Part shown: positions 4,256 to 61,616 of the stretch, piece after piece
Layout of the letters: every line of letters starts with the position of its first letter
Position numbering within the stretch: the first letter of the stretch is position 1
From: a virus
Strand: one strand, 5' to 3'
IMG/VR virus record: IMGVR_UViG_3300031578_000010
Span: 5,428-69,427 of that record
Length of the DNA: 64,000 nucleotides
The notes under the pieces: generated by a model
The model's input: only the letters and a program-made list of their open reading frames with translations
Told to the model about the DNA's origin: nothing
Databases searched by the model: none
Made by a program: the position numbers and the translations under genes

Positions 4256-4267
4256 CTGTTTTCACCT

Positions 4268-37652: not shown

Positions 37653-37907
37653 TTATGTATTTTCGGGAAATGTGACTCTTACGTTCATTATATTAAGAAA
37701 AGAAACTTCCTGTAAATTAACAACAGAAAACTCTCTATCGATATATTTCTGCATCATTTCAGGATCATCTAATAAACGAATAAGGGCTTTATTGTCAGAA
37801 CAAAGAATAAACTCCTCTAACTTTCCCTGCAATGTCGCGCCTGTTCGAAAATGAATAGTAACACTCGCCCCAATATGATATTCTTTATTTCTCATTTGAT
37901 CACACAA
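37653..37907 (-). CDS. Small Sm-like beta protein (tentative)
   Basis: VTIHFRTGATLQGKL...SVVNLQEVSFL. Confidence 0.5.
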   Translation of the reverse strand: MCDQMRNKEYHIGASVTIHFRTGATLQGKLEEFILCSDNKALIRLLDDPEMMQKYIDREFSVVNLQEVSFLNIMNVRVTFPENT

Positions 37908-38817
37908 GAGTTTTCTTAACTAATAAACCCCTTTGTAATCTTGAACCAAATTTATCTAAGTATTCTTCGAAAGTAATGCTATTTCTAAAAACAGACCCGG
38001 TTGCAGAATAAAACCTAACCAAAGGCGTTATTACACGTCTATCCCAGCCTTTCGGAATATATTCTCCTAACTTCTCAATATTCAAAGGGCGATATCTCAT
38101 AGGAAATGGCAATACGCCAAATTTCCTCAATAATTCAAGTCTATACAAAGTTTCTTCTAATGTATCTTTATAACCAAATAAAACATATACTCGAATATCT
38201 CGTGCCTTCCATCCCGCTCTTATAGCTATTTTTATTGCATTTATTACCTGGTCTTCCTCTTTAATAGAATCAAAAGCGAACCTCAATATACATTTAATTT
38301 CTGCAAATTTGCTGGCTATTGTTTTCGTAAACCTACAGGCATCTAAGCCTTGATTAAAATCAACTAAATTAAATCTCTTGCACGAATCTATAACTTTCCA
38401 AATATGCTTTTTAGATGCTGCAAGTAAATTATTATCACAAATTATTGGCGCGGGCTTAAATTTTATGATTTCTTTTATGTCTCCTTCCAATCTTGGGACC
38501 GCACAAAATCCACAGCTATTCGGGCAACCCCTTGTTGTAAATGTTGCATTTGGATTATATAAATTTAAAGGTGAAACACCCCTTGGCGCATCCTCTTCTA
38601 CATTTGCAAGGCCTTCGAACTTCTGTCGAGCCAAAACAGCTCCAGGACCGCCAACAATTATTTTTTTAGGAGGAAAAAAAGACCCCAACGAAGCTTTTAT
38701 TTTTCTTATCGTCTTTTTTACAAGCCAAGTAAAAGGAACAGAAATATATAAAGAATCTTTTTGCTCCCAACTTATCGGCCCAAGCTTCCATTTATTTTCG
38801 CGTTTTAGATTATTCAT
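37900..38817 (-). CDS. Radical SAM protein
   Basis: TTRGCPNSCGFCAVP (CxxxCxxC), CDNNLLA, DFNQGLD. Confidence 0.9.
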   Translation of the reverse strand: MNNLKRENKWKLGPISWEQKDSLYISVPFTWLVKKTIRKIKASLGSFFPPKKIIVGGPGAVLARQKFEGLANVEEDAPRGVSPLNLYNPNATFTTRGCPNSCGFCAVPRLEGDIKEIIKFKPAPIICDNNLLAASKKHIWKVIDSCKRFNLVDFNQGLDACRFTKTIASKFAEIKCILRFAFDSIKEEDQVINAIKIAIRAGWKARDIRVYVLFGYKDTLEETLYRLELLRKFGVLPFPMRYRPLNIEKLGEYIPKGWDRRVITPLVRFYSATGSVFRNSITFEEYLDKFGSRLQRGLLVKKTLV

Positions 38818-46569: not shown

Positions 46570-47619
46570 TTATGCGGTTTCTAAAAGCAGGCCGGCAAGG
46601 CTTTCCATTTCAGTCCTTTTTATATTATCCGTTATTTTTCCTGCAACAAATGCAAAGGCGAAAGCAGCGCCGAGAAGCGTCGGCTCCTCGTTCTTATACC
46701 TTTCAAGAACTCCTTCCTCGAATTTCTTCGAGAACTTATATTTTATCCGAATCTTCTCTAACCAAGCCGGGAATTTATCCACAGGAAGTGCTCTCTTTCT
46801 GGCCTTTTCTGCCATGGTTGATACTCCGCCCATTGCGCCCTCCAATTTAACGCAAAGCGCGTCTTCCATTTCAATTTGTAGCCTGGACGCGGGCGCCTCG
46901 TCCTTCCCCAATTTATCAAAGCGCGCCCTAAAATAGCGCTTTAATGAATTTCCCAACATAATCCGCGGCAGAATATAAGATGAAGGACTCTCGCGATATA
47001 TCGCCAAGTCAAGTTTCGGCGAATGAAGGGCAAATTCAGAATTAGAGGCGATTATTCCTGCAAAATTCCCTCCCAAATTTTCGAACCCCTTCGTGAAAAC
47101 TCGATTTGGCAGGATAACCCGGATGATCATTTCGTTATCCTGGAAAGCGGAAGATTCGATAATGATCTCTTCTTTCAAGACTGTTATGAAAACGCCAAGA
47201 AATAACTCGTGTGTGAAACGGATATCCTTGCCGAAAATAAATCCCCGAACGAATTTGCCCAGCATGTCTATTCCCCACTTCTCTTCCTTCGGCAAGGAAG
47301 CGAGGAACCAATTAAAGATATCCGCTCGGATATCAGGCGACAATGCCTTATAGAAATCCTCCGGAATTTTGAATCTTTTAATCAACTGGCTGAAGGCCAG
47401 AGGAGATATCTTACATATCTCGGGGCTCTTTTTCCCAATGATGAAATCAGGATAAACTAAATTATTGGACGGAGATACACGGAGGTTAGAGGCTTTCCCG
47501 CTTACCTCCTTAATTCCTTTGTGCGCAGCCTGAAGAAGATTTCTTATTTCCGCGAACTCTTTCTTGTTGTCCACCTTCTTTGCTTCCTGCTCCTTTGTTA
47601 CCGTTGTTTCTTCCGACAT
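46570..47619 (-). CDS. DUF932-like protein
   Basis: FSQLIKRFKIPEDFY...VRGF...GIIASNSE; start moved to ATG 47619 (SD AGGAG). Confidence 0.5.
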   Translation of the reverse strand: MSEETTVTKEQEAKKVDNKKEFAEIRNLLQAAHKGIKEVSGKASNLRVSPSNNLVYPDFIIGKKSPEICKISPLAFSQLIKRFKIPEDFYKALSPDIRADIFNWFLASLPKEEKWGIDMLGKFVRGFIFGKDIRFTHELFLGVFITVLKEEIIIESSAFQDNEMIIRVILPNRVFTKGFENLGGNFAGIIASNSEFALHSPKLDLAIYRESPSSYILPRIMLGNSLKRYFRARFDKLGKDEAPASRLQIEMEDALCVKLEGAMGGVSTMAEKARKRALPVDKFPAWLEKIRIKYKFSKKFEEGVLERYKNEEPTLLGAAFAFAFVAGKITDNIKRTEMESLAGLLLETA

Positions 47620-47632
47620 GGTGTGCTCCTTC

Positions 47633-48625
47633 CTAAAAGCGTGACTGAATATAGTCACTCGTTATTTTTAAAAACCTTTTTCTTGTATTCTTTTTAGAAA
47701 GCAAAACTTCCAGAAACTTCTTCTGGCTTCTTTCAGTAATATCCTCGAATACAAACTTGCCCTTTTTCTTCCTTAGAATTTTTCCTTCCCTGGCCCAAAG
47801 AAATAATTCCTTCGCTTTATCTATTCCTTTATCAAAAGTAATGTAGAAACGTCCTACTCTAAAAGGCGGACAAATCTTAGATTTAACAACCTTAGCAAAA
47901 ACAAAGTTTGAAGTTTCCTTTTGCCCTTCCTTTTCCGTTTTTACTCGTCTAATTTCAATCCGAACAGAAGCCCAAAACTTTAGCGCCCTTCCTCCCGGCG
48001 TCGTCTTCCCGCCACGAGAAAAGCCCCAGCCTATTTTATCCCTTTCTTGATTTAAGAATATAACGAGAACCTTTTTAATATCTGCCAATGCTGCTATTTT
48101 TCGAAGCGCCTTCCCCATCATTCTTGCCTGAAGCGCTACCGTTTCGTCATCCATTTCCCCTTCGAGTTCTTTCTTTGGAACTAAAGCGGCAACGCTATCA
48201 ATAACAATCGTTTTTAGTTTGCCACCTTTTATTAATTCTCGAACAATTCCAAGAGCTTGTTCCCCGTAACTGGGCTGACTTAAATATAAATCCTCTATAT
48301 TTACTCCTATTTTTTTGGCATAGGCAGGATCTAAAGCGTGCTCGGCATCTACTATTCCAGCAGGACCAAAAGTCTTTTGAGTATTGGCCAAAATTTTAAG
48401 AGCAAGAGAAGTCTTGCCGGCCGACTCCGGTCCATATAATTCTATTATTCTGCCAAAAGGAAGCCCTTTCCCGCCTAATGCCTTGTCAAGAGAAACCGAT
48501 CCAGTTGATACACAAATGCCAGGATCAAGAGGTTTATCTCCAAGGCGCATGATCGAACCTTTTCCATATTTCTTCTCGATCAGCGCCATAGTTTTAACTA
48601 TGGTATTCTTTTTCTTCTTTTTCAT
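47633..48625 (-). CDS. recA: RecA recombinase
   Basis: IEKKYGKGSIMRLG, GPESAGKTS, VDAEHALDP, IDSVAALVPK, LQARMM, GGRALKF; start moved to ATG 48625. Confidence 0.95.
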   Translation of the reverse strand: MKKKKKNTIVKTMALIEKKYGKGSIMRLGDKPLDPGICVSTGSVSLDKALGGKGLPFGRIIELYGPESAGKTSLALKILANTQKTFGPAGIVDAEHALDPAYAKKIGVNIEDLYLSQPSYGEQALGIVRELIKGGKLKTIVIDSVAALVPKKELEGEMDDETVALQARMMGKALRKIAALADIKKVLVIFLNQERDKIGWGFSRGGKTTPGGRALKFWASVRIEIRRVKTEKEGQKETSNFVFAKVVKSKICPPFRVGRFYITFDKGIDKAKELFLWAREGKILRKKKGKFVFEDITERSQKKFLEVLLSKKNTRKRFLKITSDYIQSRF

Positions 48626-48630
48626 GTTAT

Positions 48631-49308
48631 CTACCAATTAAGCTCGTCCTCGTCGTCGTCGTCATCGTCTTCACTTTTCTTGCCCTTTTTCTTTTTTCCG
48701 CCTTTCTTCCCTTTTTTGTTTTTCTTGCTCTTTTTCTTGTTTCTTTTCTTGGATTTCTTTTCCTCCTCCTCTTCCTCGTCGTCTTCATCCTCGTCGTCGT
48801 CGTCATCGTCGTCCTCTTCCTCGTCGTCGTCATCGTCGTCGTCTTCATCTTCTTCTTCCTCGTCGTCATCCCCATCTTCGTCATCGTCGTCATCGTCAGT
48901 TTCTTCCGGCTCCTCGCGATCCTTCTTTCCCTTTTTCAAAGAAAAGACCTCGTCGACTTTACACTTCGGTGTGCCATCGTCGTTCACGCTATCCGTATGA
49001 ACGATTGAAATTCGGACCTTTTTCCCTTGCAGAATAGAAATGTCGAACTTCCCTGTTTTGAATTTCATCCCGCCAAGAAGCCGTTTGAGCCACCTGCCCG
49101 TTTTATTTTTTGGGCGGGCATCGAAAGGAGACCATGCTCGCATTTCTACTCCCTTGTGTTTCCCTTTCAGTATTTTAAAAGACCATTTTAATTGAATACC
49201 GTACTTTCCATCCTCCTTTTCTATCTTGGTTATTTGGGCAAGATAGATATCCTCCGGAATTGAAAACCCGGCGCTTTTCGGTGACATAGGAATTCTGAGG
49301 CGCTTCAT
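48631..49308 (-). CDS. DUF669-like single-stranded DNA-binding protein with long acidic and basic tail
   Basis: IPEDIYLAQITKIE...LKWSFKIL OB-like core; D/E tract then K tract, ending DDDDDEDELNW; adjacent to recA. Confidence 0.65.
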   Translation of the reverse strand: MKRLRIPMSPKSAGFSIPEDIYLAQITKIEKEDGKYGIQLKWSFKILKGKHKGVEMRAWSPFDARPKNKTGRWLKRLLGGMKFKTGKFDISILQGKKVRISIVHTDSVNDDGTPKCKVDEVFSLKKGKKDREEPEETDDDDDDEDGDDDEEEEDEDDDDDDDEEEDDDDDDDEDEDDEEEEEEKKSKKRNKKKSKKNKKGKKGGKKKKGKKSEDDDDDDEDELNW

Positions 49309-49589
49309 TTCTTGCTCCTTTTCTTCTCTTTCCTTGCCTTGATTTCCTTTATATAGTCAGCAATGTCCTCCTGGACTTGCTTCCGACATTCTGCTATTAA
49401 TCTCTTCGATACAAGTCTTATTTTCTTTTTATTCTTTAACTTATCATTCGTCAAAACAATAGTTTGTTCATAGAAAGCATAAAAACGTGTCGTATGAAAA
49501 CCGCTAATAAGCAAATTCTCTTCGAAAGCCCTCCTAACAACAAATATTTTTTTAGTTAATCTTTCTAAAGAATTTAATATATTTGGCAT
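49305..49589 (-). CDS. Hypothetical protein
   Basis: 94 aa. Confidence 0.55.
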   Translation of the reverse strand: MPNILNSLERLTKKIFVVRRAFEENLLISGFHTTRFYAFYEQTIVLTNDKLKNKKKIRLVSKRLIAECRKQVQEDIADYIKEIKARKEKKRSKK

Positions 49590-50449
49590 TACTTCCTCCT
49601 CTGATTTTTCTTTATCTTTATAAATGCAGAAATTAATTGCAACGATTTGACACAGCCCAGTCGCATCCTCATATCACATTCAGCAAGATTTAAAACGGCA
49701 ACCATATTTCTATTTTCTATCGCTTCATCTGTCATTACTTTAAAAAGATATTCGGGCTCCATCTTATAAGCGTAATTTGCAAACTCACCTATATTTAAAG
49801 AGAAAACATCCTCGATTATTTCATCATTTAAATCGGCGCCATTTTTCTTTGCTTCTAATAAATGCAATAAACGTCGGGCATCTCCATTAGATTCCATAAT
49901 TATCAATTTAAATTGGTTTTTCTTTATCTTAATATTCTCCACTTGAATAACTCGTTTTGCTAAGACCTCCATATCCTTTTTATCAATCTTTTTAAAATGA
50001 CAAATAGAGCAACGGGAAATGATCGGCTCTATAACCTTGTTTATATAATTACAAGATAAAATAAAACGGCAATTATCGGAATATATCTCCATCATCCTTC
50101 TAAGAGCATGTTGGGCATCCTTTGTTATTTCGCTGGCTTCATCCAAAAATACTATTTTATATTTTCCAAAACCTTTAGTCCTGGCAAATTCCTTTACCTT
50201 CCCTCTAATAACATCAATTCCGCGTTCTGAACTCGCGTTTAATTCCAGAAGAGAATTCTTCCAATCTGCTCCGAATATTTCTCTTGCAATTATTATCGCC
50301 ACAGATGTTTTGCCCGTTCCAGCATCTCCTGAGAATAAAAGGTTGGGGATAATATGTTCTTTTTCAATAAACTTTTTTATTACTTTTATAATAGAGTCCT
50401 GGCCTATAACTTCATCAAATTTATTTGGTCTATATTTCTCTATAAACAT
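49589..50449 (-). CDS. rfcS: Clamp loader AAA+ subunit (RFC small / T4 gp44-like)
   Basis: [54 protein letters not shown]. Confidence 0.92.
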
Positions 50450-50460
50450 CTCAACCTCGT

Positions 50461-50919
50461 TTAAATTAAGGAACGATCAGGTTTTTTTATCAGTATAACT
50501 CCTTTAGTTTTCTTCCCCCATACAACCTTTTGCCCAGTTAAATTAAAGCCGAATTTCTCAAAAAACCTAATCGATCTTTTGTTCTTTGCCATGGCCTCCG
50601 TCCATATTACTTTATCTCGATAAATAATAAGGAACTTTTTTAAAACCCTCCCAGCGTTTCCATCCCCCGGCATCTTAGTAACAATTTCAGATATATGGCA
50701 ATCCCCACAATGACGCTTAACACCATGAAACCTTGTATTTACTTTATATATTCGATAAATTATTACAACATTATCTTGAAAAATTACTTGATTCCTTTTT
50801 ATCGGATCCTCTAATTTTGCAGCATAATATCTCTTTATATACGGAAATATATTATCATATTTCAGAAATATTTTCTTTATCTTATCTAAATCATTAATAG
50901 TTGCGAATTTCATCGTCAA
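50461..50919 (-). CDS. GNAT-family acetyltransferase
   Basis: [18 protein letters not shown] (motif A), [13 protein letters not shown] (motif B). Confidence 0.8.
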
Positions 50920-51809
50920 CCCCTAATGATATTGGCGTTGCCAACTACCCAAAAACAAACCTTGTCCTTCTTCTTGTCAATCAATTTCTCTCTAATCATA
51001 AAATCATAGGCCTTAGATTCATATATATTATCCAATTCAAATCCAACATTTATATGTAAAGCCTTAGAATAGGAATATTTTCCACTATAATATTTAAACT
51101 TATAACAAAATCTTGGCAAACCAATTCCAGAATATATAACAGGCCTTCTATCATGACCGAAAGGTTGAATGGCTATTATCTTCTTTAATTTAAGCTTATA
51201 TCTTAGAACACCCGACATAATTCCTGAAAATGTTAATCCGCTCCCTACAATAACAACCATCGTATCTATAAACTCAGGGATATTTTTAACTTGGTGCGCT
51301 GTTACATCGATTATTGACTTCCGATCCGAAGATACGTTCATCCCAAAAGCAACCAAAAACATAGGGCGCTCTTTAGCAAGAGTTTTTAACCTGCTATATA
51401 GAACATTATTAAACCCATAATGTTCAGATACAACCTTTATCTCAGAGCCCAACTTCTTAGCAATACGAATAGTCCGATAATTCGATAAAGCCTTTTCAAC
51501 CGTTGTCCCTCCAATTCCAATAATAGACTTAAAACCTAACTCCTTCGCAACCCTCGAAACTATTGTTCCTTGTGGCGAAGATACCGAAGTTGCTGTTGCT
51601 ACCGTTCTATTAAAAGAAGAAATTATCTGTTTCCTATTAGATAGTAGCAAGGTGAGACACTGGCGAACTTTCCCGCCGTTTATTTGGTTATATAATTTGT
51701 GACAAGATCTAAATCGCCCAAACGGCTTAAATAGATCATCTCGCTTAAAATAAATTCCATCATATTCCTCAACAGGAGTTAAATCATATATTCCGTATTT
51801 ATTTTTCAT
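50916..51809 (-). CDS. PLP-dependent fold-type II enzyme (ACC deaminase/D-cysteine desulfhydrase-like)
   Basis: LTPVEEYDGIYFKRDDL, GGKVRQ (Schiff-base Lys), VGSGLTFSGI, LDNIYESKA. Confidence 0.8.
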   Translation of the reverse strand: MKNKYGIYDLTPVEEYDGIYFKRDDLFKPFGRFRSCHKLYNQINGGKVRQCLTLLLSNRKQIISSFNRTVATATSVSSPQGTIVSRVAKELGFKSIIGIGGTTVEKALSNYRTIRIAKKLGSEIKVVSEHYGFNNVLYSRLKTLAKERPMFLVAFGMNVSSDRKSIIDVTAHQVKNIPEFIDTMVVIVGSGLTFSGIMSGVLRYKLKLKKIIAIQPFGHDRRPVIYSGIGLPRFCYKFKYYSGKYSYSKALHINVGFELDNIYESKAYDFMIREKLIDKKKDKVCFWVVGNANIIRG

Positions 51810-52356
51810 TTTGACCCCTTGTAGGAAAACTATAATAAAACCTCATAAAGGGGCTATATTTCGGATTAAAACAAGACAATAAAAAATGTACTATCCTTCT
51901 TTCAGTATAATATAATAACTGATCTATTCTATTTATTAAATTAATATTCTCTAAATCGTTTTCATCCAGGTTACTTATAATCCACTTCAATAAAACCTCC
52001 AACGGAGGTTTCTCTCTTTCTAAGGAATTAAAAACCTGTTTTCTATTCTTATTTGAAAAGATCAAAGAGAGTGTATGGAAAATATTGCTTCCTTCTGTCT
52101 TTCCATAATAAAGAACTTTATTAACCAAATGTTTGACTTTTTGGATTCTATCTTCTTTCGCTGTTCTTAGATCAATATCACAGGAACTTCTTTTTATTAT
52201 AGAATTTAATTTCCTTATATCTAATCTCCCAGCATCCAAATCTATTATTATCTTAGATTTAATTAACTGTTTTGCCAACATCTTATTTAGAGTAATTTTG
52301 TCTAAAGATATTGCATCTTTAAAGATCTCTTTATCGCAAACAAGCAACCTAATCAT
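51799..52356 (-). CDS. Putative second clamp-loader subunit (RFC large C-terminal-like / gp62 analogue)
   Basis: SNIFHTLSLIFSNK...PPLEVLLKWIISNL resembles RFC-L collar region; no ATPase domain. Confidence 0.5.
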   Translation of the reverse strand: MIRLLVCDKEIFKDAISLDKITLNKMLAKQLIKSKIIIDLDAGRLDIRKLNSIIKRSSCDIDLRTAKEDRIQKVKHLVNKVLYYGKTEGSNIFHTLSLIFSNKNRKQVFNSLEREKPPLEVLLKWIISNLDENDLENINLINRIDQLLYYTERRIVHFLLSCFNPKYSPFMRFYYSFPTRGQNEK

Positions 52357-53219
52357 TATATTCTCTGAAATATTTGAGCATATTCGTGGACTCGAACTAA
52401 ATTATGATTTCCTTTTGTGAACATCCCGATTCGCTGTATAGCCGGCGTTCCCCTAAAAATAATAGGAATCTCTTCCAACATTTTAAAACCTGTTCGGTGC
52501 ATTCTTGCAGTGTCATGATTCATTCCCTGTAAATATCCATCCAAATCTCTAACCAAACCAATAACCCAAACTGAAATAGCCCCTTTCTTTAATATTCTAT
52601 AACTCTCGTTTATTGATTTCTGAATTCCTTTATTAAACTCATCGTATGTTCCTAACATTGATAAATCTTTCTTTCCTCCTCGATAGTGTTCCACATTCCA
52701 ATAAGGCGGGCAAGTAATAAGAAAGTCTGCAATTTCATCCTCAACCATTGGAACAGATCTTGAATCGCCACATATTATCTTAACTTTTTTAGATACCTTA
52801 TTTCTTTTCGCCCTCCGCAAAATTGCCTCACATTCGTTCTTTCTAATTTCAATTCCAATATAATCCATTCCATGGCGGGCCGCCATAATTGCCCTTGTCC
52901 CTCCCCCAGCGAAAGGATCGTAACATATCCCCTTCTTGGGAGCGTATCTATTAAAAATCCAATACGCTGTCGCTGGATTAAAAACACTTTGAGAATTCCT
53001 ATAACAAGATTTCTTAGATTGATTTTCTGGCTGAAGGCAAGCCGCTCTTTCGGATCCAAAATAGGCGGAATCCCCAATATGCCTTTTCTGCCTTCTAACC
53101 TCTGGATCAGATAAATATGACTCCCAAACTGTAAATGGCGGAGCCGGCAATCTGCCCACAGATGTTTTAAAATCGCCAACTATCTGGCCAAATAGGTCTT
53201 TAACTTGTTTTCTTGACAT
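52356..53219 (-). CDS. Amino-type DNA methyltransferase, paralogue 2
   Basis: DPFAGGGT, ITCPPYW; N-terminal QVKDLFG. Confidence 0.85.
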   Translation of the reverse strand: MSRKQVKDLFGQIVGDFKTSVGRLPAPPFTVWESYLSDPEVRRQKRHIGDSAYFGSERAACLQPENQSKKSCYRNSQSVFNPATAYWIFNRYAPKKGICYDPFAGGGTRAIMAARHGMDYIGIEIRKNECEAILRRAKRNKVSKKVKIICGDSRSVPMVEDEIADFLITCPPYWNVEHYRGGKKDLSMLGTYDEFNKGIQKSINESYRILKKGAISVWVIGLVRDLDGYLQGMNHDTARMHRTGFKMLEEIPIIFRGTPAIQRIGMFTKGNHNLVRVHEYAQIFQRI

Positions 53220-54133
53220 TATTTCTTCTCCGGTTTTTTAAATATAAGAACATATTCATGAGAACGAATAAGAAACTTCCTGCCTTTATCAAAATTCCCC
53301 ACTCGCCTTAAAGATCCGGTGTTCTTAATATGTAGAATAATTTCTTCTTTAATTAAAAATCCAGCTTTCCGATGCATTGATGTCACATCATGGTTCAAAC
53401 AAATAAGACTTCCATTTTTATGTCTATGTAATCCTACAACCCAGCAAGATATTGATCCAGGTTTCAAAATTCTAAAAGTTTCGCGAACAACTTTAAATAA
53501 ATCTCCTTTGAATTCACTATATGATTCTTTCATAGATAAATCAGTAACTCCGCCCTCATATTTTTCAAGGTTCCAATAAGGAGGGCAAGTTATAAGAAAA
53601 TCTGCTTTAGAATTTGTGACCTTCCGAGGATATCTTGCATCGCCATGAATTATTTTAACCCGATCAGAAAAACCCGCATTATCCACTCTTTTTTCGACCG
53701 CTATACATTCTTCTTTTCTTATTTCATATCCTATATATTTTAATCCATGCCGAGCCGCCATTATAGCCCTTGTACCTCCGCCAGCGAAGGGGTCAAAACA
53801 TATCCCCTTTTTAGGAGCATATAAATTTAATAACCAATAAGCAATTGCTGGATTAAATACACTCGCGCCATATTGATAACCAAATGTTCCATCAACCGTT
53901 TCATGCCGGGCTCGTTTCTCTGCCTCTTTAAAACTAAATTTATATCTACTGGTATTCGTGCCCTGCGATCTCGACTTAGCATCTTTAACTGCCCCGATAT
54001 CCCCCACCATCTTTTTAAATTTGCGGACCTGAGGATCACTCATATCGCAATCCCAAACGGTGATAGGCCAGATACCATATCTCTGGCGCATCGTTTTAAA
54101 TTCGCCAACGGCTTCACCAAATAAATCTTTCAC
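53219..54133 (-). CDS. Amino-type DNA methyltransferase, paralogue 3
   Basis: DPFAGGGT, ITCPPYW; N-terminal MKDLFG. Confidence 0.85.
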   Translation of the reverse strand: MKDLFGEAVGEFKTMRQRYGIWPITVWDCDMSDPQVRKFKKMVGDIGAVKDAKSRSQGTNTSRYKFSFKEAEKRARHETVDGTFGYQYGASVFNPAIAYWLLNLYAPKKGICFDPFAGGGTRAIMAARHGLKYIGYEIRKEECIAVEKRVDNAGFSDRVKIIHGDARYPRKVTNSKADFLITCPPYWNLEKYEGGVTDLSMKESYSEFKGDLFKVVRETFRILKPGSISCWVVGLHRHKNGSLICLNHDVTSMHRKAGFLIKEEIILHIKNTGSLRRVGNFDKGRKFLIRSHEYVLIFKKPEKK

Positions 54134-54876
54134 TTTCCCTCCTCCTCTTTCGTCATGAGCAAATAAAGAGAAGAATATTTATCGCCAAACCTAATCAACA
54201 TAGGAGGGTCTTTCTCCAAGAATATTTTAACCTTTCCTTCCAAGGATTTAAAGATCTCTTTTATACCATGCCCAAAACAAACTGACATCTCTTTCTTTAA
54301 TACAGGTTTTTTTATTTGAAGGTTTGTCGTTATTGAATTTTTTCCTCTTTTTACTTTTGCTTTTACTCCCGCCTTATCAATTAAGATATAATATGTATGC
54401 TCATCGAGAATATCAGCATCCCCTACTAATTCTTTTAATTGTTCCGCCCTCACAATAAAATTATTTGTTTTATATACGACCTTTAAGGCAGGAGTTTTAA
54501 TGGAGTTCTTCTCGAATTTGATGGCATCCACGTTAGCAAAACTCTCTATATTTTTCAAGGGAGTCACTTCGAAACGACCTATTTTCCTCTTCTGTTTTAT
54601 AATCAGCTGCTTTTCATCGGCAGAAATGGAAACAGTATCAGAAAAGCGAGTCAATATTTTCATGAACTGAGCAATATCCCCAATAGTAAATATTCCATGT
54701 TTCTGAATTTGGGCTTCTGTGCTTACTCGAAAGAAAATTGCCCTCGATGTATCCGTTCCTTTCGTTGTTAACTGCCCATTCTTAGCGGATATAACGCAAT
54801 CCAGCACCAACCCATCAAGATGAGCTTGTGAAAGGAAACTGATAAAGCTGCCATTATCTATTTCGAAAAGCGCCAT
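54130..54876 (-). CDS. Sliding clamp, PCNA/gp45-like (two-domain subunit)
   Basis: 248 aa; KGTDTSRAIFFRV, IGDIAQFMKIL, VKIFLEKDPPMLIRF...YLLM follow PCNA pattern; in operon with clamp loader and polymerase. Confidence 0.75.
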   Translation of the reverse strand: MALFEIDNGSFISFLSQAHLDGLVLDCVISAKNGQLTTKGTDTSRAIFFRVSTEAQIQKHGIFTIGDIAQFMKILTRFSDTVSISADEKQLIIKQKRKIGRFEVTPLKNIESFANVDAIKFEKNSIKTPALKVVYKTNNFIVRAEQLKELVGDADILDEHTYYILIDKAGVKAKVKRGKNSITTNLQIKKPVLKKEMSVCFGHGIKEIFKSLEGKVKIFLEKDPPMLIRFGDKYSSLYLLMTKEEEGK

Positions 54877-55367
54877 TACTTTGTCCTCCTATATTCGCTA
54901 TCCAAACTCCGGATAGCGTTCTCCAAAGCGTCCAAAAGCTTGTTCGTCCGGTGCATTACGTTAGTGTAAATTGAAACTTTTTCAATTCCTTTTGCTTCCT
55001 CTGCCCTAAGTTTCTTACTTCGTCTTTCTGCTTCATTAGTACATATACTATCAGTTACCTTATCGACCCCATCAACGCCTTCTGTTTTCGCGTTCATGAA
55101 AAAGGCTGCTGATTTTGTTTTTCTAATTCCGTATATTTTATTTTGCTCCCCCTCTGCCTTCCCAGCATATACCGCAAGAAAAACGTTGAGGGCGGATAGG
55201 TTTATTTGATCTCGTATCAGCTTATCTTTTTTATATCTTGAAACCATTTCCGCGATGCCTATTCCAGCATATTTATCGACTATTTTGAGTATCTTCCTTA
55301 AGAACTCATACTCCTGTGGGTCATTCTGAAAGGTCGAAAAATCTATAATAACATTCCGCTCTTGCAT
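54876..55367 (-). CDS. Helical hypothetical protein (possible UvsY-like recombination mediator)
   Basis: 163 aa; C-terminal amphipathic helices; location in replication/recombination operon. Function is a guess. Confidence 0.45.
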   Translation of the reverse strand: MQERNVIIDFSTFQNDPQEYEFLRKILKIVDKYAGIGIAEMVSRYKKDKLIRDQINLSALNVFLAVYAGKAEGEQNKIYGIRKTKSAAFFMNAKTEGVDGVDKVTDSICTNEAERRSKKLRAEEAKGIEKVSIYTNVMHRTNKLLDALENAIRSLDSEYRRTK

Positions 55368-58300
55368 TCCTCTATCTCCAAAAAGGATTGAATTTTCTCT
55401 GTTATATTAAAGACCTTATCCTTATCCCCATAGCAAAGAACCCTATTCCCGCCCATGAGCCGCCCATCTACAAAAACGATATTAAAAGGTTTCAATACAG
55501 ATTTAAAATGTTGCATCCCTGCTTTATCTAAATATATATAAATATCCCCCCTATGATCTTCCATTTTAACTACAGCGGCAGATTTCCCCGTCATCTTTTC
55601 CTGAATTTCTAAAATAATACCACAAACCCTAACCCTCTCCCACCTATTATATTGACTTAGTTGCAGAGACGAAGAACAATATCTTTTTAATAAGAAATCT
55701 TTAACAGGTTCAAAAAAGAAAGGATGCAATAAAATAAATCCAAAGGCATCCACAGAATCTTCAAGGAACGTTTTATTAGTATCTAATACCTTTTCCTTCC
55801 GGATTGAATTAAAACGGCCTTTAACGGCCTGTCTTTCCATTAAAGAATCAAAACATCCTGCCTGTATTAATTTAATTATCTTTCCTTTGTGGACCTTTCC
55901 ACTTATTTTTTCAATAAAATCATCGAAGGATTTAAATGGCCTCTTTTCTATAATCTCTTCCGCAGATGTTTTAATTTCCTTTATTTTAGATAATCCAAAT
56001 CTTATCCCATCCTTTTCTATCGTAAACCCCATCCCCGATTTATTAATATCCGGGCCGTATACATTAATATTAAATCGCCTTGCTTCATTTATATATTTAT
56101 ATAGTTTGTTTTTCTCCGAACCTTTTTTTCTATCCTTTGTTATTCCTACGTCAGTATTGCTAAGCAAACTGGCAAAGAATTGACGAGGATAATAATTCTT
56201 TAAATACAGCACCTGAAAAAATAAATAAGTGTATGAGATTGCATGGGACGCGTTGAAAGAATAACTTGTAAATTCCTTTATTACATTCCAAAGTTTTATC
56301 GCGTCGTTGTTCCCAATAGTCTTCCTACAATGTTCAAAGAATTCCTTTTTAAATTTCTTTATCTCCTTTGTATTAAATTCTTTCTTCGCAGCCAATTTCC
56401 GAATATTATTTGCTTCTGCTAAAGAAAATCCTGCCACCCTATGTAATAGCTGCATAACCTGTTCTTGATATACTAAAACACCTCGTGTTCCTTTCAATGT
56501 TTTTTTAACCTCTTTATTATCAATTCCTATCCCTTCATAATTAATAAACCTTTCTATTGCCCCGCTCGCTAAAGGTCCGGGCCTATTTATAGCATTTAAA
56601 GCGGCAATCTCGCCAAAGTTTTTAGGTTTAACATCCATCAATAAGCGCGTTGCTGATTCGGTTTCAAATTGGAACGCCCCTATCGTATTCCCTTTATTCG
56701 CTTCTTCGATTAACTTTTTATCTTTAATATCTAATTTCCAAATACTATCACTTAGATCCTTTTTCTCAGTTTCCTTTACCAAATCTATCGCGTCAGAAAT
56801 AATAGAACAAGTATTTAACCCTAATATATCAAATTTAATTAATCCCACGGCAGATAAATCCCTCCCTCGGTTTCCTTCAGAATATGCAGAAACCAATTCC
56901 CCTTTTATTTTTTGCAATGGGCAATATTTATAGACAGGATTTGGAGCAATAACAACCCCGCAAGGATGAACTCCTGAATTCCTAATTAAACTTGACGCCC
57001 TTTTGGCAAGGTTAAAGGCAACTTTATTTTCTTTTACAAAATCTTTCAATATTCCAGACAAATTATTAAATGCTTTCTTTATATTCCCTGCCCTATATAT
57101 TTCTCCCGTTATTTCATTTATTGACCGAATAGGGAGTTTAAATATTCTGCCTACATCCCGTAATGCTCCGACTTCCCCGAAGGTATTAAATGTTATAATT
57201 CTTGCTACTTTATTTTGGCCATGCCTATCGTTCAAATAAGAAAAAACCAAATCCCTTTTATTAGCCTGAAAATCGAGGTCGATATCCGGCGCGTCAGACC
57301 GAGACTTATCAAGAAAGCGTTCAAATAATAAACCGTATTTAAGCGGATCTATCTTCGTGATATTCAGAATAAACGCAACTAAAGATCCTGCAACAGAACC
57401 TCTTGCCGGTCCCACAAATATCCTGTTTTCTCGGCACCAATTAGTTAAATCCCGAACGATCAAAAAATAGTCCTGAAATTTCAATTTTTGAATTACATCC
57501 AATTCCCTCTTCATTCTTTTCTTATATTTTTCTTTATCTTTAAAATCAAATCGCCTGAATTCCCGCATAGTCATTTTTCTAAATTCGGAAACATCCATCC
57601 CCATATCTGGAATATGTATTTTCCCCATCGGGATCTTTATATCGCAGCCCGACGCCAAATCTGCCGTGCAGTCAGTATATCTTTTAAATTCTTTCTTTGT
57701 TATATTATGGCCAAATTTCCTGGCCATAGAAAAGAGTTCTTTCCCATCAACCAAATGCAAAGAACGAGCATTATAAACAACCTTTTTTCTATCGTCTATC
57801 GTTTTATGTTCTCTGACCATCAATACAAAATCTTGTAATTCAACATCCCTTTTCTCTGCATAATGAGAATCAAGAGCGACTATCAAAGGAATATGTAATC
57901 TGTTGGCAATTTTCTTCAATCTTTCATTTGTATATTTTTGTGTTACAACTTCATTTAATTGTAGTTCTATAACGAAATTATCCCCAAATGCATCCCTCCA
58001 CCTTAAAGCCTCCTGTAAAGCCATTTTATCATTTGGCAATTTCGCCAATATCCCGCCCATGCAAGCAGTTGACGCTATAATATCTTTATTATGATTAAAT
58101 ATAATTTCAGATGTCGTTCTTGGTCTATAATAATATCCATTAATATTTGCCTCAGAAACTATATATAAAAGATTCAAATAACCTACATAACTTTTCGCCA
58201 ATAAAATAACGTGCCTATACTCCCCTTTTCTCCCTGGCGAATCATCAACGTACATCTCAACGCCAATTATCGGATTAATTCCAGCCTTTCTACATTCTAA

Positions 58301-58459
58301 ATAAAATTCCAAGCCTCCCGCCATTGTTCCGTGGTCGGTTATTGCAAGAGAAGGCATATTTAAATCGGCAGCCTTTTTCACCAAAGAAGTAATTGTAGCA
58401 ACGCCATCCAAGATGGAAAAATGGCTGTGAGAATGAAGATTTATTAAATTAAACTTCAT
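55343..58459 (-). CDS. dnaE: DNA polymerase III alpha subunit (family C)
   Basis: PHP LHSHSHFSILDG, AITDHG; GPARGSVAGS, PDIDLDF, GVHPCG, KFDILGL, GAFQFE, YSFNASHA; no intein visible. Confidence 0.96.
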   Translation of the reverse strand: MKFNLINLHSHSHFSILDGVATITSLVKKAADLNMPSLAITDHGTMAGGLEFYLECRKAGINPIIGVEMYVDDSPGRKGEYRHVILLAKSYVGYLNLLYIVSEANINGYYYRPRTTSEIIFNHNKDIIASTACMGGILAKLPNDKMALQEALRWRDAFGDNFVIELQLNEVVTQKYTNERLKKIANRLHIPLIVALDSHYAEKRDVELQDFVLMVREHKTIDDRKKVVYNARSLHLVDGKELFSMARKFGHNITKKEFKRYTDCTADLASGCDIKIPMGKIHIPDMGMDVSEFRKMTMREFRRFDFKDKEKYKKRMKRELDVIQKLKFQDYFLIVRDLTNWCRENRIFVGPARGSVAGSLVAFILNITKIDPLKYGLLFERFLDKSRSDAPDIDLDFQANKRDLVFSYLNDRHGQNKVARIITFNTFGEVGALRDVGRIFKLPIRSINEITGEIYRAGNIKKAFNNLSGILKDFVKENKVAFNLAKRASSLIRNSGVHPCGVVIAPNPVYKYCPLQKIKGELVSAYSEGNRGRDLSAVGLIKFDILGLNTCSIISDAIDLVKETEKKDLSDSIWKLDIKDKKLIEEANKGNTIGAFQFETESATRLLMDVKPKNFGEIAALNAINRPGPLASGAIERFINYEGIGIDNKEVKKTLKGTRGVLVYQEQVMQLLHRVAGFSLAEANNIRKLAAKKEFNTKEIKKFKKEFFEHCRKTIGNNDAIKLWNVIKEFTSYSFNASHAISYTYLFFQVLYLKNYYPRQFFASLLSNTDVGITKDRKKGSEKNKLYKYINEARRFNINVYGPDINKSGMGFTIEKDGIRFGLSKIKEIKTSAEEIIEKRPFKSFDDFIEKISGKVHKGKIIKLIQAGCFDSLMERQAVKGRFNSIRKEKVLDTNKTFLEDSVDAFGFILLHPFFFEPVKDFLLKRYCSSSLQLSQYNRWERVRVCGIILEIQEKMTGKSAAVVKMEDHRGDIYIYLDKAGMQHFKSVLKPFNIVFVDGRLMGGNRVLCYGDKDKVFNITEKIQSFLEIEECKSGMLL

Positions 58460-58463
58460 ATTA

Positions 58464-58661
58464 TTAACCTTTAATCTTTTCCAGATTAGAACAAAGAGAA
58501 GAGAAGTCCTTCCAATATTCTTTTCTTAAAATTGCAATGTAGCAATATTCGGAAGAAGAATAATGAGAAATTATATAAACAAAATTATTAAACCTGGATA
58601 TTAGTCTATTAAAAATTTCAGGTGTTATAGTTGTTATTATAAAATTATCAAGATTGGGCAT
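58464..58661 (-). CDS. Small hypothetical protein
   Basis: 65 aa, SD GAGGAG. Confidence 0.5.
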   Translation of the reverse strand: MPNLDNFIITTITPEIFNRLISRFNNFVYIISHYSSSEYCYIAILRKEYWKDFSSLCSNLEKIKG

Positions 58662-58840
58662 GAATATATCTCCTCATGATCTTGGAGGAATTAAAATGCC
58701 GCTGCTTTCCGAAGACCTACGTTCTCCATTCTTAATCGTTCTACTAATAGCTGCCATACCATTATTGATATTCTTATTGCCTTTTATATTGGTAATAACC
58801 CTCTTCTGTTCGGTGCCTTCGGATAGTAAAGGGGAATCCC

Positions 58841-59050
58841 TCATTCCTTCCTGTGTATCTTGCTTGCTATTAATGAAATTGCGTCCTCTTCAGAAGAGGT
58901 TTTTATCTTTTCTTTTATTTCCGGCAGGTCTTCTAAATAAATAAAAAGAGAATGTTTCGGCTCTTCCCCCCTCGCAATAATGTCAATTTCATCCAGAGTA
59001 ACCCGTTTGAAAAGCATACTAAACTGGGCAATTAAATCACGCTTATTCAT
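58841..59050 (-). CDS. Small hypothetical protein
   Basis: 69 aa. Confidence 0.5.
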   Translation of the reverse strand: MNKRDLIAQFSMLFKRVTLDEIDIIARGEEPKHSLFIYLEDLPEIKEKIKTSSEEDAISLIASKIHRKE

Positions 59051-59675
59051 TTTCGCCCTCTTTCTCTATAAGCATTTTTAAAAACGTATAAATTGATTTG
59101 CACCTCCGATACAAGCCCATCATGGAAATATTCATATCTTTTGCCATTCTTTTGAAATTAAAATTGCGATCTCTATATAAACGAATATAAATTGCCCAAG
59201 AATCCTTAGTTAATCTCTCCTTAAATAGCCGCAAAAAATCATCTATTAATATGTCATCTAACATTTCCTTTCCATCTGCTATTTTTAATAATTGGCCTTC
59301 ATTATTTAATTCGAATTCTGTAAATGTAATAATAGGCAAATTATCAGGATATTTCTCCTTATTTAATATTTGCCGAAGCATAGTTCTAAATTTATTGGTT
59401 ACAGAGATTTTAACCAGTGTTCTAAAACCTGCAAGATCGGGGTTATAAGCCGGGATAACCTTTGTCTGAATATGTAAATATGCCTCCTGCATCAAATCAT
59501 TTACATCGTTGCCGGGAAAAGAGCGAACAAATTGATTTGCTACATTCCTAATCACAGGTTGAATTGCCTGGAAAATTCTATTATATGATGTTTTCCTACC
59601 TTCTCGATACTTTATAACTGCCCTATCAAGCGCGGTTGTTTTTCTTCTTTTCTTTTTTGTTTTATCGCCTTCCAT
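59043..59675 (-). CDS. RNA polymerase sigma-70-family-like factor
   Basis: Region 2-like DVNDLMQEAY...FRTLVKISVTNKFRTML; region 4-like HTH FKRMAKDMNISMMGLYRR. Confidence 0.8.
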   Translation of the reverse strand: MEGDKTKKKRRKTTALDRAVIKYREGRKTSYNRIFQAIQPVIRNVANQFVRSFPGNDVNDLMQEAYLHIQTKVIPAYNPDLAGFRTLVKISVTNKFRTMLRQILNKEKYPDNLPIITFTEFELNNEGQLLKIADGKEMLDDILIDDFLRLFKERLTKDSWAIYIRLYRDRNFNFKRMAKDMNISMMGLYRRCKSIYTFLKMLIEKEGENE

Positions 59676-59680
59676 ATACT

Positions 59681-60304
59681 TTAATCCTCCCAGCCGAATA
59701 TATAACTATCCTGATATTTCAAGCCAAAATAGGCATAAAGTTTCGCCAATTTCTTTTTGAACCTTGTTTGATATTTGCGATAATGTCTTCTCATTTTAAC
59801 CTGTTTCCCTTTATTACTGATATCCTTCTCAGAAATTCGAGCACATACTTTGCAATTATTAATATGTTTACCGTAATTATCTGATTTAATTATTTTAAAC
59901 CTTCTCATCGTTTTAGAAGTAGATGCACTTTTAAGCCTTTCGGGATAAGCCAAAAGAATTTTATTTAACTGGAATATTTGACACGCAGGCCTATCAGCGA
60001 ATCTATTCACGCAGAGGTCATATTCTCCAAAATATAAACAGCCCCAGCAACGATAGGGCGTTTTATAATAATTCCTTTCATAAGCATCCCCAAACCTTCC
60101 AATTTGCTCCGGTTTAAGCCTGGCATCTCTAAGGGCAATGGATGAGATTATTCTTAAAGATTCCTGGCTCATTTCCTTTATTATTCTGTCCGCCTTTATT
60201 AGCGCGCCTATGCTCCTTTGTTCCGCCGTTATTCTCAATATATAAGCCAGCCCCCGAAGGCGGCGGCCTTTCTGGAGAATATTTCGATTCATATTCGGCC
60301 TCAA
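59681..60304 (-). CDS. Basic Cys-containing hypothetical protein
   Basis: CWGC...C...C and CKVC; 207 aa. Confidence 0.6.
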   Translation of the reverse strand: MRPNMNRNILQKGRRLRGLAYILRITAEQRSIGALIKADRIIKEMSQESLRIISSIALRDARLKPEQIGRFGDAYERNYYKTPYRCWGCLYFGEYDLCVNRFADRPACQIFQLNKILLAYPERLKSASTSKTMRRFKIIKSDNYGKHINNCKVCARISEKDISNKGKQVKMRRHYRKYQTRFKKKLAKLYAYFGLKYQDSYIFGWED

Positions 60305-60322
60305 ATGTTAGATTTATTTTCA

Positions 60323-60766
60323 TTACTCGAAGTTATCCACTCCATTAATTGAAAGGTGAGCATCGATACAGGCCACAACAAACCTTTGTATTTTCTTCCA
60401 CCGTTTCAATTTCTGTACTAAACAATCCCCATCATAATACACGTTTCCCTTCAAGCAACTTTCTTCATATTTTTTAACGTGGGCCGCCTTAGATGCTATT
60501 ACAATACGTTTATTGTAGACGGCAAAAGCCTGCCGAAAAGATTCGGCCTTTATTACCGCCGCCGTCGTTCCGCGCAGGGATTCGGCCAGGACGAAAAAAT
60601 TAAAGGTTTTAATATTTCCCTTTTTCCTTTTAGTTTTAGCTATAACTTTTGCCACCCGTTCCGCCTGCTTTTTCTTTTTCATTTCGCGCAAGACTTTTCT
60701 GATCGCTTTTGCGCTATCTCGTACATTTTCCCTTTTACGCGGCCTCCCCCGTTTCCTGCCCTTCAT
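60323..60766 (-). CDS. Basic hypothetical protein with AT-hook-like N-terminus
   Basis: MKGRKRGRPRKR; start moved to ATG 60766 (SD GGAGG). Confidence 0.6.
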   Translation of the reverse strand: MKGRKRGRPRKRENVRDSAKAIRKVLREMKKKKQAERVAKVIAKTKRKKGNIKTFNFFVLAESLRGTTAAVIKAESFRQAFAVYNKRIVIASKAAHVKKYEESCLKGNVYYDGDCLVQKLKRWKKIQRFVVACIDAHLSINGVDNFE

Positions 60767-60857
60767 AGTAACGACCTCCAATATGTTAAAAATATGGGTT
60801 AGAATGCCCTCCCGAGAAATGTATCCCGATATTAACCCCGACAAGGGGTTTGTCTTG

Positions 60858-61050
60858 CGCCAGGTCGCATTTCACGGCTAATCCTGTACTTTTACCCTTA
60901 TCTCCCCCTAAAAACGCGACCTGGCGCGACCTGGCGTACCTCTTCAAAGGGGTTAGCTTACGCCAGGTCGCATTTTGAGGGGGGAAACCTGCCCCTTTGC
61001 CCATCTCCTCCCCTAAAAACGCCGCCTGGCGCGACCTGGCGCGTTTGGCG
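60858..61050. repeat. GC-rich direct and inverted repeat array (GCGACCTGGCG)
   Basis: Direct copies at 60916, 60926, 61031 (variants 61021, 61041); inverted copies at 60858, 60961; forms two about 103-bp units. Confidence 0.85.
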
Positions 61051-61052
61051 CC

Positions 61053-61337
61053 CTAATCCCAGCCCCTACACCCACAATAGTATGTATTCGTATTCTTCTC
61101 ATAGAAAGGCGGATTCCCTCCCCCCTTTATTATTAAGAATTTCCGCTCGCAATAGCAGCATTTTGGTTGTGCCTTTATGGCATGTTTCTCGAATTCGTGC
61201 CCATCGCAAATAGGGCAAATCCGATTCCCCTTTTCATCCGTCGCAAGAATATCATGTCCGCAATTAGAGCATACTTCTACCACAATCAGGCAGGAGCGTT
61301 CAATATTCCCATTTTCTTCCTGCGGTATATTTGCCAT
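61053..61337 (-). CDS. Multi-zinc-ribbon protein
   Basis: CSNC, CPIC, CCYC, CGC; start moved to ATG 61337. Confidence 0.6.
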   Translation of the reverse strand: MANIPQEENGNIERSCLIVVEVCSNCGHDILATDEKGNRICPICDGHEFEKHAIKAQPKCCYCERKFLIIKGGGNPPFYEKNTNTYYCGCRGWD

Positions 61338-61367
61338 GGTTTCCCCTTTCAATGTTTTATTCCCATA

Positions 61368-61616
61368 TTACCGCCACAGATATTTGAAGATGCGCCGGAG
61401 AGTACCGCGCTTGTGAGGATCTTTTTCTTCGACTGCGACTTTCTTCGCAGATTCTTCCGCGATGATGAAACCTGGAAACGCCTCATACTTTTCTGTTTCC
61501 GCCCACAGAGGCTCCGCCAGAGGCCGACATTTCTTGCACAGATCTTTCCCCTTGTATTTCGCCCGGCCCAGTTCCTTGCGGCAACCCGCACAGGGAGTTC
61601 CGTAACTCAGGCCCAT
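61368..61616 (-). CDS. Zinc-finger hypothetical protein
   Basis: CAGC...CKKC; start moved to ATG 61616. Confidence 0.6.
   Translation of the reverse strand: MGLSYGTPCAGCRKELGRAKYKGKDLCKKCRPLAEPLWAETEKYEAFPGFIIAEESAKKVAVEEKDPHKRGTLRRIFKYLWR

Follow-up and report, generated by a model that had tools for sequence, protein, structure and literature searches.

The stretch of DNA analysed here, referred to as the window, comprises 64,000 nucleotides (bases 5428–69427) of the 90,431-bp IMG/VR virus record IMGVR_UViG_3300031578_000010, rated 100% complete by CheckV; coordinates are window positions unless marked otherwise. The genome is that of a myovirus-type phage (portal, XkdF-type protease, baseplate genes), carries every gene of appreciable size on the minus strand and encodes its own replisome and repair set: DnaE-type DNA polymerase III (Pol III) alpha, DnaB, primase, uracil-DNA glycosylase, RecA, SbcCD, RuvC and 5'-3' exonuclease. 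Among the replisome genes lie two tandem methyltransferase (MTase)-fold genes (MTase-A and MTase-B), a gene for a pyridoxal phosphate (PLP) enzyme of fold type II and a gene for a GNAT-fold N-acetyltransferase, the order of transcription being Pol III alpha, 163-aa gene, clamp, MTase-A, MTase-B, 185-aa gene, PLP enzyme, GNAT, clamp loader (Table 1). Adjoining cassette genes overlap by 1–11 bases or sit 11 bases apart. The gene order of the initial annotation (clamp, MTase, MTase, RFC-L-like gene, PLP enzyme, GNAT, clamp loader) was recovered in full on the minus strand, and the third MTase paralogue (MTase-C) and the radical S-adenosylmethionine (SAM) gene that it had placed by the terminase were both found there, with a TerL-like neighbour.

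The two families, MTase and PLP enzyme, are on sequence evidence very probably coupled in function. The tandem MTases, the third paralogue, the PLP enzyme and the GNAT are read, tentatively and somewhat short of probable, as a single pathway that modifies DNA bases after replication and is expressed from the replisome operon.

Table 1. Genes of the modification cassette, its borders and related genes (window positions; E values follow the database match).
Feature	Position	Strand	Matches and remarks
Pol III alpha	55343-58459	minus	
unknown, 163 aa	54876-55367	minus	
PCNA-like sliding clamp, 248 aa	54130-54876	minus	weak: phrog_947 1.6e-5, NF002219 4e-4; upstream border of insertion
MTase-A, 304 aa	53219-54133	minus	Pfam N6_N4_Mtase 76 bits, 5.4e-21; phrog_12517 3.2e-50
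MTase-B, 287 aa	52356-53219	minus	Pfam N6_N4_Mtase 54.2 bits, 2.6e-14; phrog_12517 4.2e-47
185-aa gene	51799-52356	minus	weak RFC large subunit match NF003229, E 0.001
fold-type II PLP enzyme, 297 aa	50916-51809	minus	phrog_3650 4.3e-33, phrog_7093 2.7e-8
GNAT-fold N-acetyltransferase, 152 aa from TTG	50461-50919	minus	AlphaFold2 (AF2)/Foldseek, PDB profile match
RFC-small-type clamp loader ATPase, 286 aa	49589-50449	minus	phrog_168 1.6e-56; Pfam DNA_pol3_delta2, AAA; downstream border
RecA, two small genes after clamp loader	47633-48637	minus	
MTase-C, 294 aa, third paralogue	36224-37108	minus	Pfam N6_N4_Mtase 69.9 bits, 4.1e-19; phrog_12517 1.1e-47
radical SAM protein, 305 aa, beside TerL-like gene	37900-38817	minus	phrog_9298 1.3e-30; CPNSCGFC residues 98-105

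PLP enzyme: Pfam PALP (PF00291) was matched at 31.7 bits, under the cut-off of 35; a precomputed PF00291 hit is present in most homologues (40.6 bits for gp2 of Mycobacterium phage Vincenzo), 192 of which were collected. In an alignment of 39 homologues the Schiff-base lysine (K47 in GGKVRQ, codon 51669–51671) is invariant, as are G189 and G200 of the glycine-rich phosphate loop, and S190 is nearly so (at least 90%). The family profile matches the 1-aminocyclopropane-1-carboxylate (ACC)-deaminase-like protein 1j0a (best, 1e-9), 1f2d and D-cysteine desulfhydrase; weak NCBIfam matches to cysteine synthase, SbnA and ACC deaminase were obtained as well. From the phrog_3650 match, the 192 homologues, the invariant K47 with the glycine-rich loop and the 1j0a profile match, the assignment to fold-type II PLP enzymes is safe, and the initial annotation, which had named such an enzyme with its Schiff-base lysine, was right on this point.

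Relatives of the PLP enzyme in cultured phages (tblastn, 50,697 records): 208 were found, of which about 200 are Ackermannviridae genes of the gp226 type (1e-9 to 2e-19). Another lies in Glutamicibacter phage Montesquieu, inside a thymidine-hypermodification cluster, between a clade-2 aGPT-Pplase and two P-loop kinases and near a thymidylate-synthase-like hydroxymethylase. Two members, ViI gp226 and M6 gp52, have been purified and shown to remove the carboxyl group of serine or glycine once these are joined to thymine in DNA (Lee et al. 2021, PMC8989533). By homology the window enzyme is a member of this gp226/gp52 decarboxylase family; the statement of the initial annotation that PLP enzymes build hypermodified bases in other phages thus has real homology to ViI gp226 and M6 gp52 behind it. 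Shared are the fold-II family (phrog_3650, phrog_7093), the conserved Schiff-base lysine, the location in a phage genome in or near replication genes, and the template 1j0a, which was also the structural template of Lee et al. (PMC8989533). In the related PaMx11 pathway the resulting amine is acetylated by a GNAT. Identity to gp226 and gp52 is only 23–34%, and, unlike those systems, the window phage is without a source of 5-hydroxymethyl-2'-deoxyuridine (5-hmdU), a 5-hmdU DNA kinase and a recognisable amino-acid:DNA transferase (AADT). The constant partner here is instead a SAM-dependent MTase-fold enzyme, so that the appended group, and probably the target base, would differ.

Search for the classical hypermodification route: Thymidylat_synt (PF00303), Ploopntkinase3 (the 5-hmdU DNA kinase domain), HMUDK_hel, Tet_JBP (PF12851) and Asp_Arg_Hydrox gave no match in six frames of the complete genome (profile search, E ≤ 1), none of PF00303, PF12851, PF18751 and PF18723 being present. 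Tet_JBP represents the post-replicative route to 5-hydroxymethyluracil (PMC13229309). The Montesquieu enzymes gave zero matches in this genome by BLAST and phmmer, AADT being checked by these queries alone, which is the weaker check. The phmmer queries for kinase, thymidylate synthase and AADT found nothing in this genome or in the 94 PALP loci from assemblies and IMG/VR, to which that search was confined, loci from metagenome-assembled genomes (MAGs) lying outside it. The initial annotation had seen no thymidylate synthase in the window; there is none anywhere in the 90,431 bp. Since the classical priming enzymes are absent, the PLP enzyme must receive its substrate from another source, and the only neighbouring enzyme able to install an amino acid is SAM-dependent.

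MTase and PLP genes in other phages: a single PALP protein used as query found no related loci, whereas an alignment query succeeded; loci were taken from public assemblies, IMG/VR (80 loci) and MAG contigs (27 loci), and the open reading frames (ORFs) of the first 94 (assemblies and IMG/VR) were clustered together with those of this genome. The second-largest cluster, after that of PALP, holds all three window MTases and members from 54 loci. An MTase of this cluster, the (S/C)PPY family, is present in 49 of the 80 IMG/VR loci and directly adjoins PALP in 43 of the 80, against 12.8 expected under random gene order. The adjacency is seen in both orders and within more than 15 different outer flanks. 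Recurring orders are PolB-MT-PALP-MazG or GNAT-RecA; clamp loader-MT-PALP; SbcC-x-PALP-MT; MT-PALP-'c6'-spermidine-synthase-like-HD; and oxygenase-PALP-GNAT-MT. Both of the nearest PALP homologues (55% identity) have an MTase immediately upstream, ParB-fused in one, and in a PALP tree the window protein falls in a clade of 43 rows, 32 of them MTase-adjacent (quick tree, in which the long outgroup branches are unreliable). On MAG contigs an MTase is directly adjacent in 6 of 27 loci and one gene away in 2 more. IMG/VR matches number 260, many of them in marine T4-like phages. The initial annotation had proposed an analysis of co-occurrence of PALP, GNAT and TCPPY MTases across phages and had named its lack as a refuting result; that result was not obtained, MTase-PALP adjacency recurring in many phages.

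A separate arrangement was seen in the Bacteroidales MAG loci L115 and L116, in which PALP lies between a divergent ORF of 380–412 aa and an ORF of 517–548 aa; L120 and L122 resemble them (517–548-aa ORF in L120, divergent ORF of about 390 aa in L122). Of the two PALP neighbours scanned, both in L116:4579-8532, one is a tyrosine integrase and the other a type I HsdM methylase.

Fusions: three independent types were found. In L113 a single open frame encodes a marine-type MTase (GWGGR, SPPY), a basic linker of 30 residues and then PALP. In P0241 (781 aa) PALP comes first and is followed by a full marine-type MTase. P0242 (769 aa) has a ParB-like head and an MTase that belongs to the same TCPPY subfamily as those of the window (own-type hidden Markov model (HMM), 1.3e-42) and is interrupted between motif II and motifs III/IV by a complete PALP domain; as it is present on five contigs from three samples and is followed by terminase genes, it is not an assembly slip. 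Beside these, an 844-aa protein (L123:1194-3728) was noted, in which a domain of unknown family lies on each side of a central PALP domain, the two (about 290 and 350 aa) resembling each other; the gene is preceded by a marine-type MTase.

The unfused form is present in a cultured phage: gp1 of Mycobacterium phage Vincenzo (ParB and MTase, FSCPPY) aligns over its full length to MTase-B (E 3e-22) and overlaps gp2, the PALP homologue; the cultured Mycobacterium phage AlanGrant likewise has a ParB-MTase (gp1) and a PLP gene (gp2). The functional link that the initial annotation drew between MTase-fold and PLP genes is well supported by the adjacency, the three fusion types and the Vincenzo pair. 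Prediction of a complex of PALP with MTase-B (both as alignments) gave a score of 0.00, i.e., no answer, and counts neither way on binding. Two genes after the Vincenzo ParB-MTase/PALP pair lies gene 4 (L100:2559-3152), annotated 'terminase small subunit', which matches Ploopntkinase3 (7.5e-74, 242.7 bits); no thymidylate-synthase or Tet/JBP homologue was found in Vincenzo.

MTase-fold enzymes: all three paralogues exceed the Pfam PF01555 cut-off of 26.7 bits, and motif I precedes motif IV in each; MTase-A and MTase-B are 49% identical. Motif I of MTase-A is DPFAGGGTR; motif IV, for which the family pattern is (D/N/S)PP(Y/F), reads TCPPY in all three (53576–53590 in MTase-A, 52701–52715 in MTase-B, 36572–36586 in MTase-C). 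In an alignment of 39 MTase homologues DPFAGGGTR, E124 and TCPPY are invariant, D152 is nearly so, and C170 of MTase-B is invariant. The best solved relative of the subfamily is the Thermus DNA modification methylase 2zie (3.8e-22). Each of the three opens with KDLFG followed by xxVGxFKT (54119–54133, 53195–53210, 37094–37108), and LFG near the N-terminus is retained in the consensus of the 39 homologues; with the MTase genes following that of a PCNA-like clamp, KDLFG may be a clamp-binding peptide.

The window holds three copies without ParB. Members of the same subfamily with the same (T/S)CPPY occur as stand-alone ParB-MTases without PALP in Listeria B054 (gp77), Enterococcus phiFL3A (gp36), Microcystis Mae-JY30 and others, and three phages of about 100 kb carry 45–50% identical homologues in multi-MTase clusters with PALP absent within 10 kb. 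Alignment of the window MTases with the ParB-fused orphan phage MTases (Listeria B054 gp77, phiFL3A gp36, phrog_12517/498) is full length, with motif I DPFAGG, motif IV (T/S)CPPY and an N-terminal PPF/W element in common; unlike these orphans, the window copies begin with KDLFG in place of ParB and stand in a replisome operon, two genes from the PLP enzyme. A PLP partner is lacking in most members of the family. TCPPY was considered as a marker of PLP coupling and rejected, since the stand-alone ParB-MTases carry it too and it is therefore a subfamily trait; the TCPPY motif named in the initial annotation is present in all three window MTases but is not specific to the PLP-linked form. A literature search on CPPY methyltransferases returned no paper that mentions one. 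The MTases beside most PALP genes belong to a more distant, marine-type branch (TSPPY, an odd motif I DTSMGWGDR, an extra N-terminal domain), which is absent from this genome (HMM of its N-terminal domain, no ORF hit). Two close homologues of the window MTases stand in tandem on L106 (contig of about 67 kb; the phage is also found on contigs up to 108 kb), and an S-adenosylmethionine decarboxylase gene (AdoMet_dc, L106:16772-17149) was observed about 6 kb downstream of them.

GNAT and accessory neighbours: Pfam and NCBIfam gave no match for the GNAT protein, and phrog_1249 was matched only at E 0.005. An AF2 model was obtained with a mean predicted confidence (pLDDT) of 84.6 and a predicted TM score (pTM) of 0.81; all of its top 50 Foldseek matches in the PDB are GNATs (including PaiA, 1tiq) at TM 0.51–0.73, and the five best PDB matches of the homologue profile are likewise all GNATs, from E 3.6e-4 (1tiq, PaiA) to 0.034. 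Translation probably begins at the ATG at 50913, the counterpart of a conserved M3. Homologues are present in 8 other PALP loci, always directly after PALP and in at least three contexts besides that of the window; none was found in cultured phages. The identity given to this gene at first reading is thereby upheld, and, judged from gene order, the GNAT is a recurrent third member of the module. Further neighbours of PALP are a spermidine-synthase-like protein and an oxygenase of the Asp/Arg-hydroxylase type; judged by family, every one of the variable accessory genes beside the MTase-PALP pair has an amine or an amino-acid side chain as its predicted target. A second conserved PALP neighbour, the 'c6' family (325–371 aa, e.g., L022:1961-3076), occurs with or without an MTase, once in three tandem copies, and often has genes for a spermidine-synthase-like and an HD-domain protein after it; Pfam, PHROG and PDB profiles gave no match for it.

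The 185-aa gene and the origin of the operon: the 185-aa product, placed within the cassette by the initial annotation as an RFC-L-like gene, has 9 homologues in an exhaustive search and matches, weakly, the lid region of RFC large subunits only (NF003229). The closest homologue (45% identity) lies on a short metagenome contig (L140:1-1208), directly between a clamp gene of 53% and a clamp loader gene of 60% identity to those of the window, with MTase, PALP and GNAT all absent. Clamp, 185-aa gene and clamp loader therefore made up the ancestral operon, the modification genes being later insertions. On this comparison the 185-aa gene is part of the replisome and not of the cassette, probably as an accessory subunit of the clamp loader. 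Two other assignments were rejected: as an AraC-type protein (ESM Atlas; sub-threshold leads, poor model) and as the detached N-terminal domain of the marine-type MTases (domain HMM without any ORF hit here).

Radical SAM gene: the protein carries CxxxCxxC at residues 98–105 and gave 12 phage hits, only in Marinitoga, Clostridium, Bacteroides and Methanomassiliicoccales viruses, the hosts of which are all anaerobes. None of the 12 stands beside a PLP enzyme or in an M6-like phage (kinship to the M6 gp53 isomerase), and the family is in none of the 40 largest clusters of PALP-locus proteins. Membership of this gene in the pathway was therefore rejected, and the link to the cassette suggested by the initial annotation could not be detected.

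Other observations on the genome: a scan of 47000–61500 for promoters and terminators gave promoter-like sites below the shuffle mean and 16 terminator-like sites against 9.3 (sd 3.4), and no operon boundary was found. The cassette gave zero matches to cultured phages by blastn. Two islands of 53–56% G+C (window 4001–8000 and 16001–20000) lie in the structural-gene region, the rest of the genome having 33–42% G+C; both contain long antisense ORFs, typical of high G+C. The uracil-DNA glycosylase gene adjoins those of primase and DnaB outside the window (G000:C1:73020-73763), and the possession of this enzyme argues against uracil-containing DNA.

Proposed pathway: an MTase-fold enzyme would flip a base and present its exocyclic amine by way of the (S/C)PPY motif. 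A SAM-dependent enzyme has no amino acid to deliver other than the aminocarboxypropyl end of its cofactor, which is for this reason the proposed transferred group; the 3-amino-3-carboxypropyl (acp) end, rather than or besides the methyl, would thus land on the base amine. Two routes are conceivable. TYW2 is an MTase-fold enzyme that transfers aminocarboxypropyl directly on tRNA, and the window MTases could act on DNA as enzymes of this type do on RNA. Alternatively, a PLP-bound vinylglycine intermediate might be formed from SAM with loss of methylthioadenosine (MTA), as in Mur24. Removal of the carboxyl group by the PLP enzyme would then turn the tethered amino acid into an aminopropyl group, whose freed primary amine the GNAT would acetylate.

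Precedents for single steps are available. Mur24, a PLP-dependent enzyme from the biosynthesis of muraymycin-type nucleoside antibiotics, releases MTA as it moves the aminocarboxypropyl group from SAM onto an amine, and the product is then decarboxylated to the aminopropyl form (PMC10491745); the chemical logic is the same as proposed here, by analogy only, as Mur24 is ACC-synthase-like, non-homologous to the window protein, acts on a small molecule and has no MTase-fold partner. The GNAT gp48 of PaMx11 acetylates the amine of 5-aminomethyluracil in DNA (PMC8989533). CmoX, a phage MTase-fold cytosine C5-carboxymethyltransferase that uses carboxy-SAM, equips DNA with a non-methyl group on which later modifications can build and often has ParB-domain neighbours (PMC12783734); unlike the window system it belongs to the C5-MTase family, takes its cofactor from CmoA and has no PLP enzyme (PMC12783734). 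The proposed system would be a phage gene cluster for the hypermodification of DNA after replication, with a priming enzyme of a new kind. The literature search found no paper on an MTase and PLP DNA-modification module.

That DNA is the substrate here, which group is transferred to which base, and in what order the steps run, we infer from the gene content and the precedents above. An amine-bearing, non-methyl mark on the DNA of this phage is plausible, if not quite probable; the exact chain of acp, aminopropyl and acetyl is unlikely as a whole. More specific still, and slightly less likely, is an N-(3-acetamidopropyl) base on A, C or G, for which the MTase, either by itself or jointly with the PLP enzyme on one SAM molecule, would supply the amino-acid end, and which would be made at the fork by MTases tethered to the clamp via KDLFG, the module being common in abundant marine T4-like phages. 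The chemistry of the initial annotation is coherent and, like the present one, deduced throughout; its 'PLP elimination/replacement' is better worded as 'decarboxylation or PLP-mediated gamma-replacement'.

Several points weigh against a hypermodification pathway. The MTase core is by sequence that of an ordinary, conserved methyltransferase, and a methylase is the best PDB relative; the window subfamily is found mostly without a PLP partner; and as no sequence feature divides PLP-coupled from stand-alone MTases, all of them may simply methylate. About 40% of the PALP loci have no MTase in the stretch examined, and PALP homologues also adjoin unrelated MTases, namely HsdM in Bacteroidales MAGs and a D12 Dam-like gene in L119, neighbours that, as a matter of gene context, fit a general SAM/S-adenosylhomocysteine (SAH) helper role equally well. 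In this phage MTase-A/B and PALP-GNAT stand at two different junctions of the ancestral operon and are not adjacent, so that they need not have arrived together, and the chance of lying within two genes of an MTase is about 9% (three MTase genes in about 130). An aminocarboxypropyl or aminopropyl DNA base has not been reported in the literature searched.

Plain methylation with a PLP helper is the main rival: the three MTases would be m6A/m4C enzymes of different specificities, serving as an anti-restriction battery, the PLP enzyme would, e.g., destroy inhibitory SAH or reshape SAM, the GNAT would be a separate accessory, and there would be no hypermodified base. The canonical and invariant core, the methylase 2zie as best relative and the mostly stand-alone subfamily all agree with this; PALP beside HsdM and Dam-type MTases is what is expected of a helper indifferent to MTase family, and a fusion or a nested domain would suit channelling of SAH. 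We know of no fold-II PLP enzyme that cleaves SAH, and the hosts already have SAH nucleosidase or hydrolase. The GNAT, the spermidine-synthase-like protein and the amino-acid-type hydroxylase, which recur directly beside the PLP gene, are left unexplained, and such relatives of the PLP enzyme as have been characterised all work on amino acids tethered to DNA (PMC8989533). The helper role is on the unlikely side, though the likeliest of the alternatives.

It is less likely again, and improbable, that there is no shared pathway at all, PALP-GNAT and the MTases having been inserted independently at a permissive spot of the replisome operon, and PALP and GNAT acting on a small molecule of the host's amino-acid or polyamine metabolism and not on DNA. 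The comparison with L140, which shows the two gene pairs at two separate junctions, speaks for such a history, as do the lack here of the marine-type SPPY MTase that is cognate to the closest PALP homologues and the presence of a polyamine acetyltransferase among the nearest solved relatives of the GNAT. P0242 and Vincenzo, however, show the window's own TCPPY subfamily partnering with PALP, the three fusion types argue that the PALP clade works with an MTase, and the ParB domains on partner MTases point to a DNA substrate.

A reversed order of steps has little probability: the PLP enzyme would act first and attach an alanyl group from serine or O-acetylserine to the base by beta-replacement, and the amine would then be N-methylated or N-acetylated by the MTases and the GNAT. 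The weak NCBIfam matches to cysteine synthase and SbnA would suit this chemistry, those to ACC deaminase being obtained as well, and NPPY-type enzymes of the same fold (PrmC/HemK) methylate non-nucleobase nitrogens. The MTase, however, is the constant partner and the fused one, which would rather be expected of an enzyme that primes than of one that tailors; both MTase and GNAT would be competing for one amine; and the closest characterised PLP relatives are decarboxylases (PMC8989533). Least probable is classical thymidine hypermodification via 5-hydroxymethyluracil with priming enzymes too divergent to be recognised, for although such pathways do employ both this PLP family and a GNAT (PMC8989533) and Vincenzo has its strong Ploopntkinase3 gene downstream of PALP, Thymidylat_synt, Tet_JBP, Ploopntkinase3 and HMUDK_hel are absent from this genome at the threshold given above, the kinase, thymidylate synthase and AADT queries match nothing in it or in the 94 loci, and it encodes a uracil-DNA glycosylase.

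Known phage hypermodifications begin from a pre-made odd nucleotide (5-hmdU, 5-hydroxymethyl-2'-deoxycytidine (5-hmdC), deazaguanine) or from oxidation of 5-methylcytosine. Priming by an amino-methyltransferase-type enzyme together with a PLP enzyme would, if the proposed pathway is true, give DNA hypermodification a new point of entry and SAM possibly a new role on DNA, and its product would be the first aminocarboxypropyl or aminopropyl modification of DNA; if the helper role is true instead, a new accessory function for DNA methyltransferases would still result. The question is directly testable in the cultured carrier Vincenzo. The module is widespread, being found in IMG/VR phages, on prophage-like MAG contigs and in a cultured mycobacteriophage, and such a modification would matter for the evasion of restriction and CRISPR, for how environmental phage DNA behaves in sequencing and for tools that label DNA with amines at specific sites.

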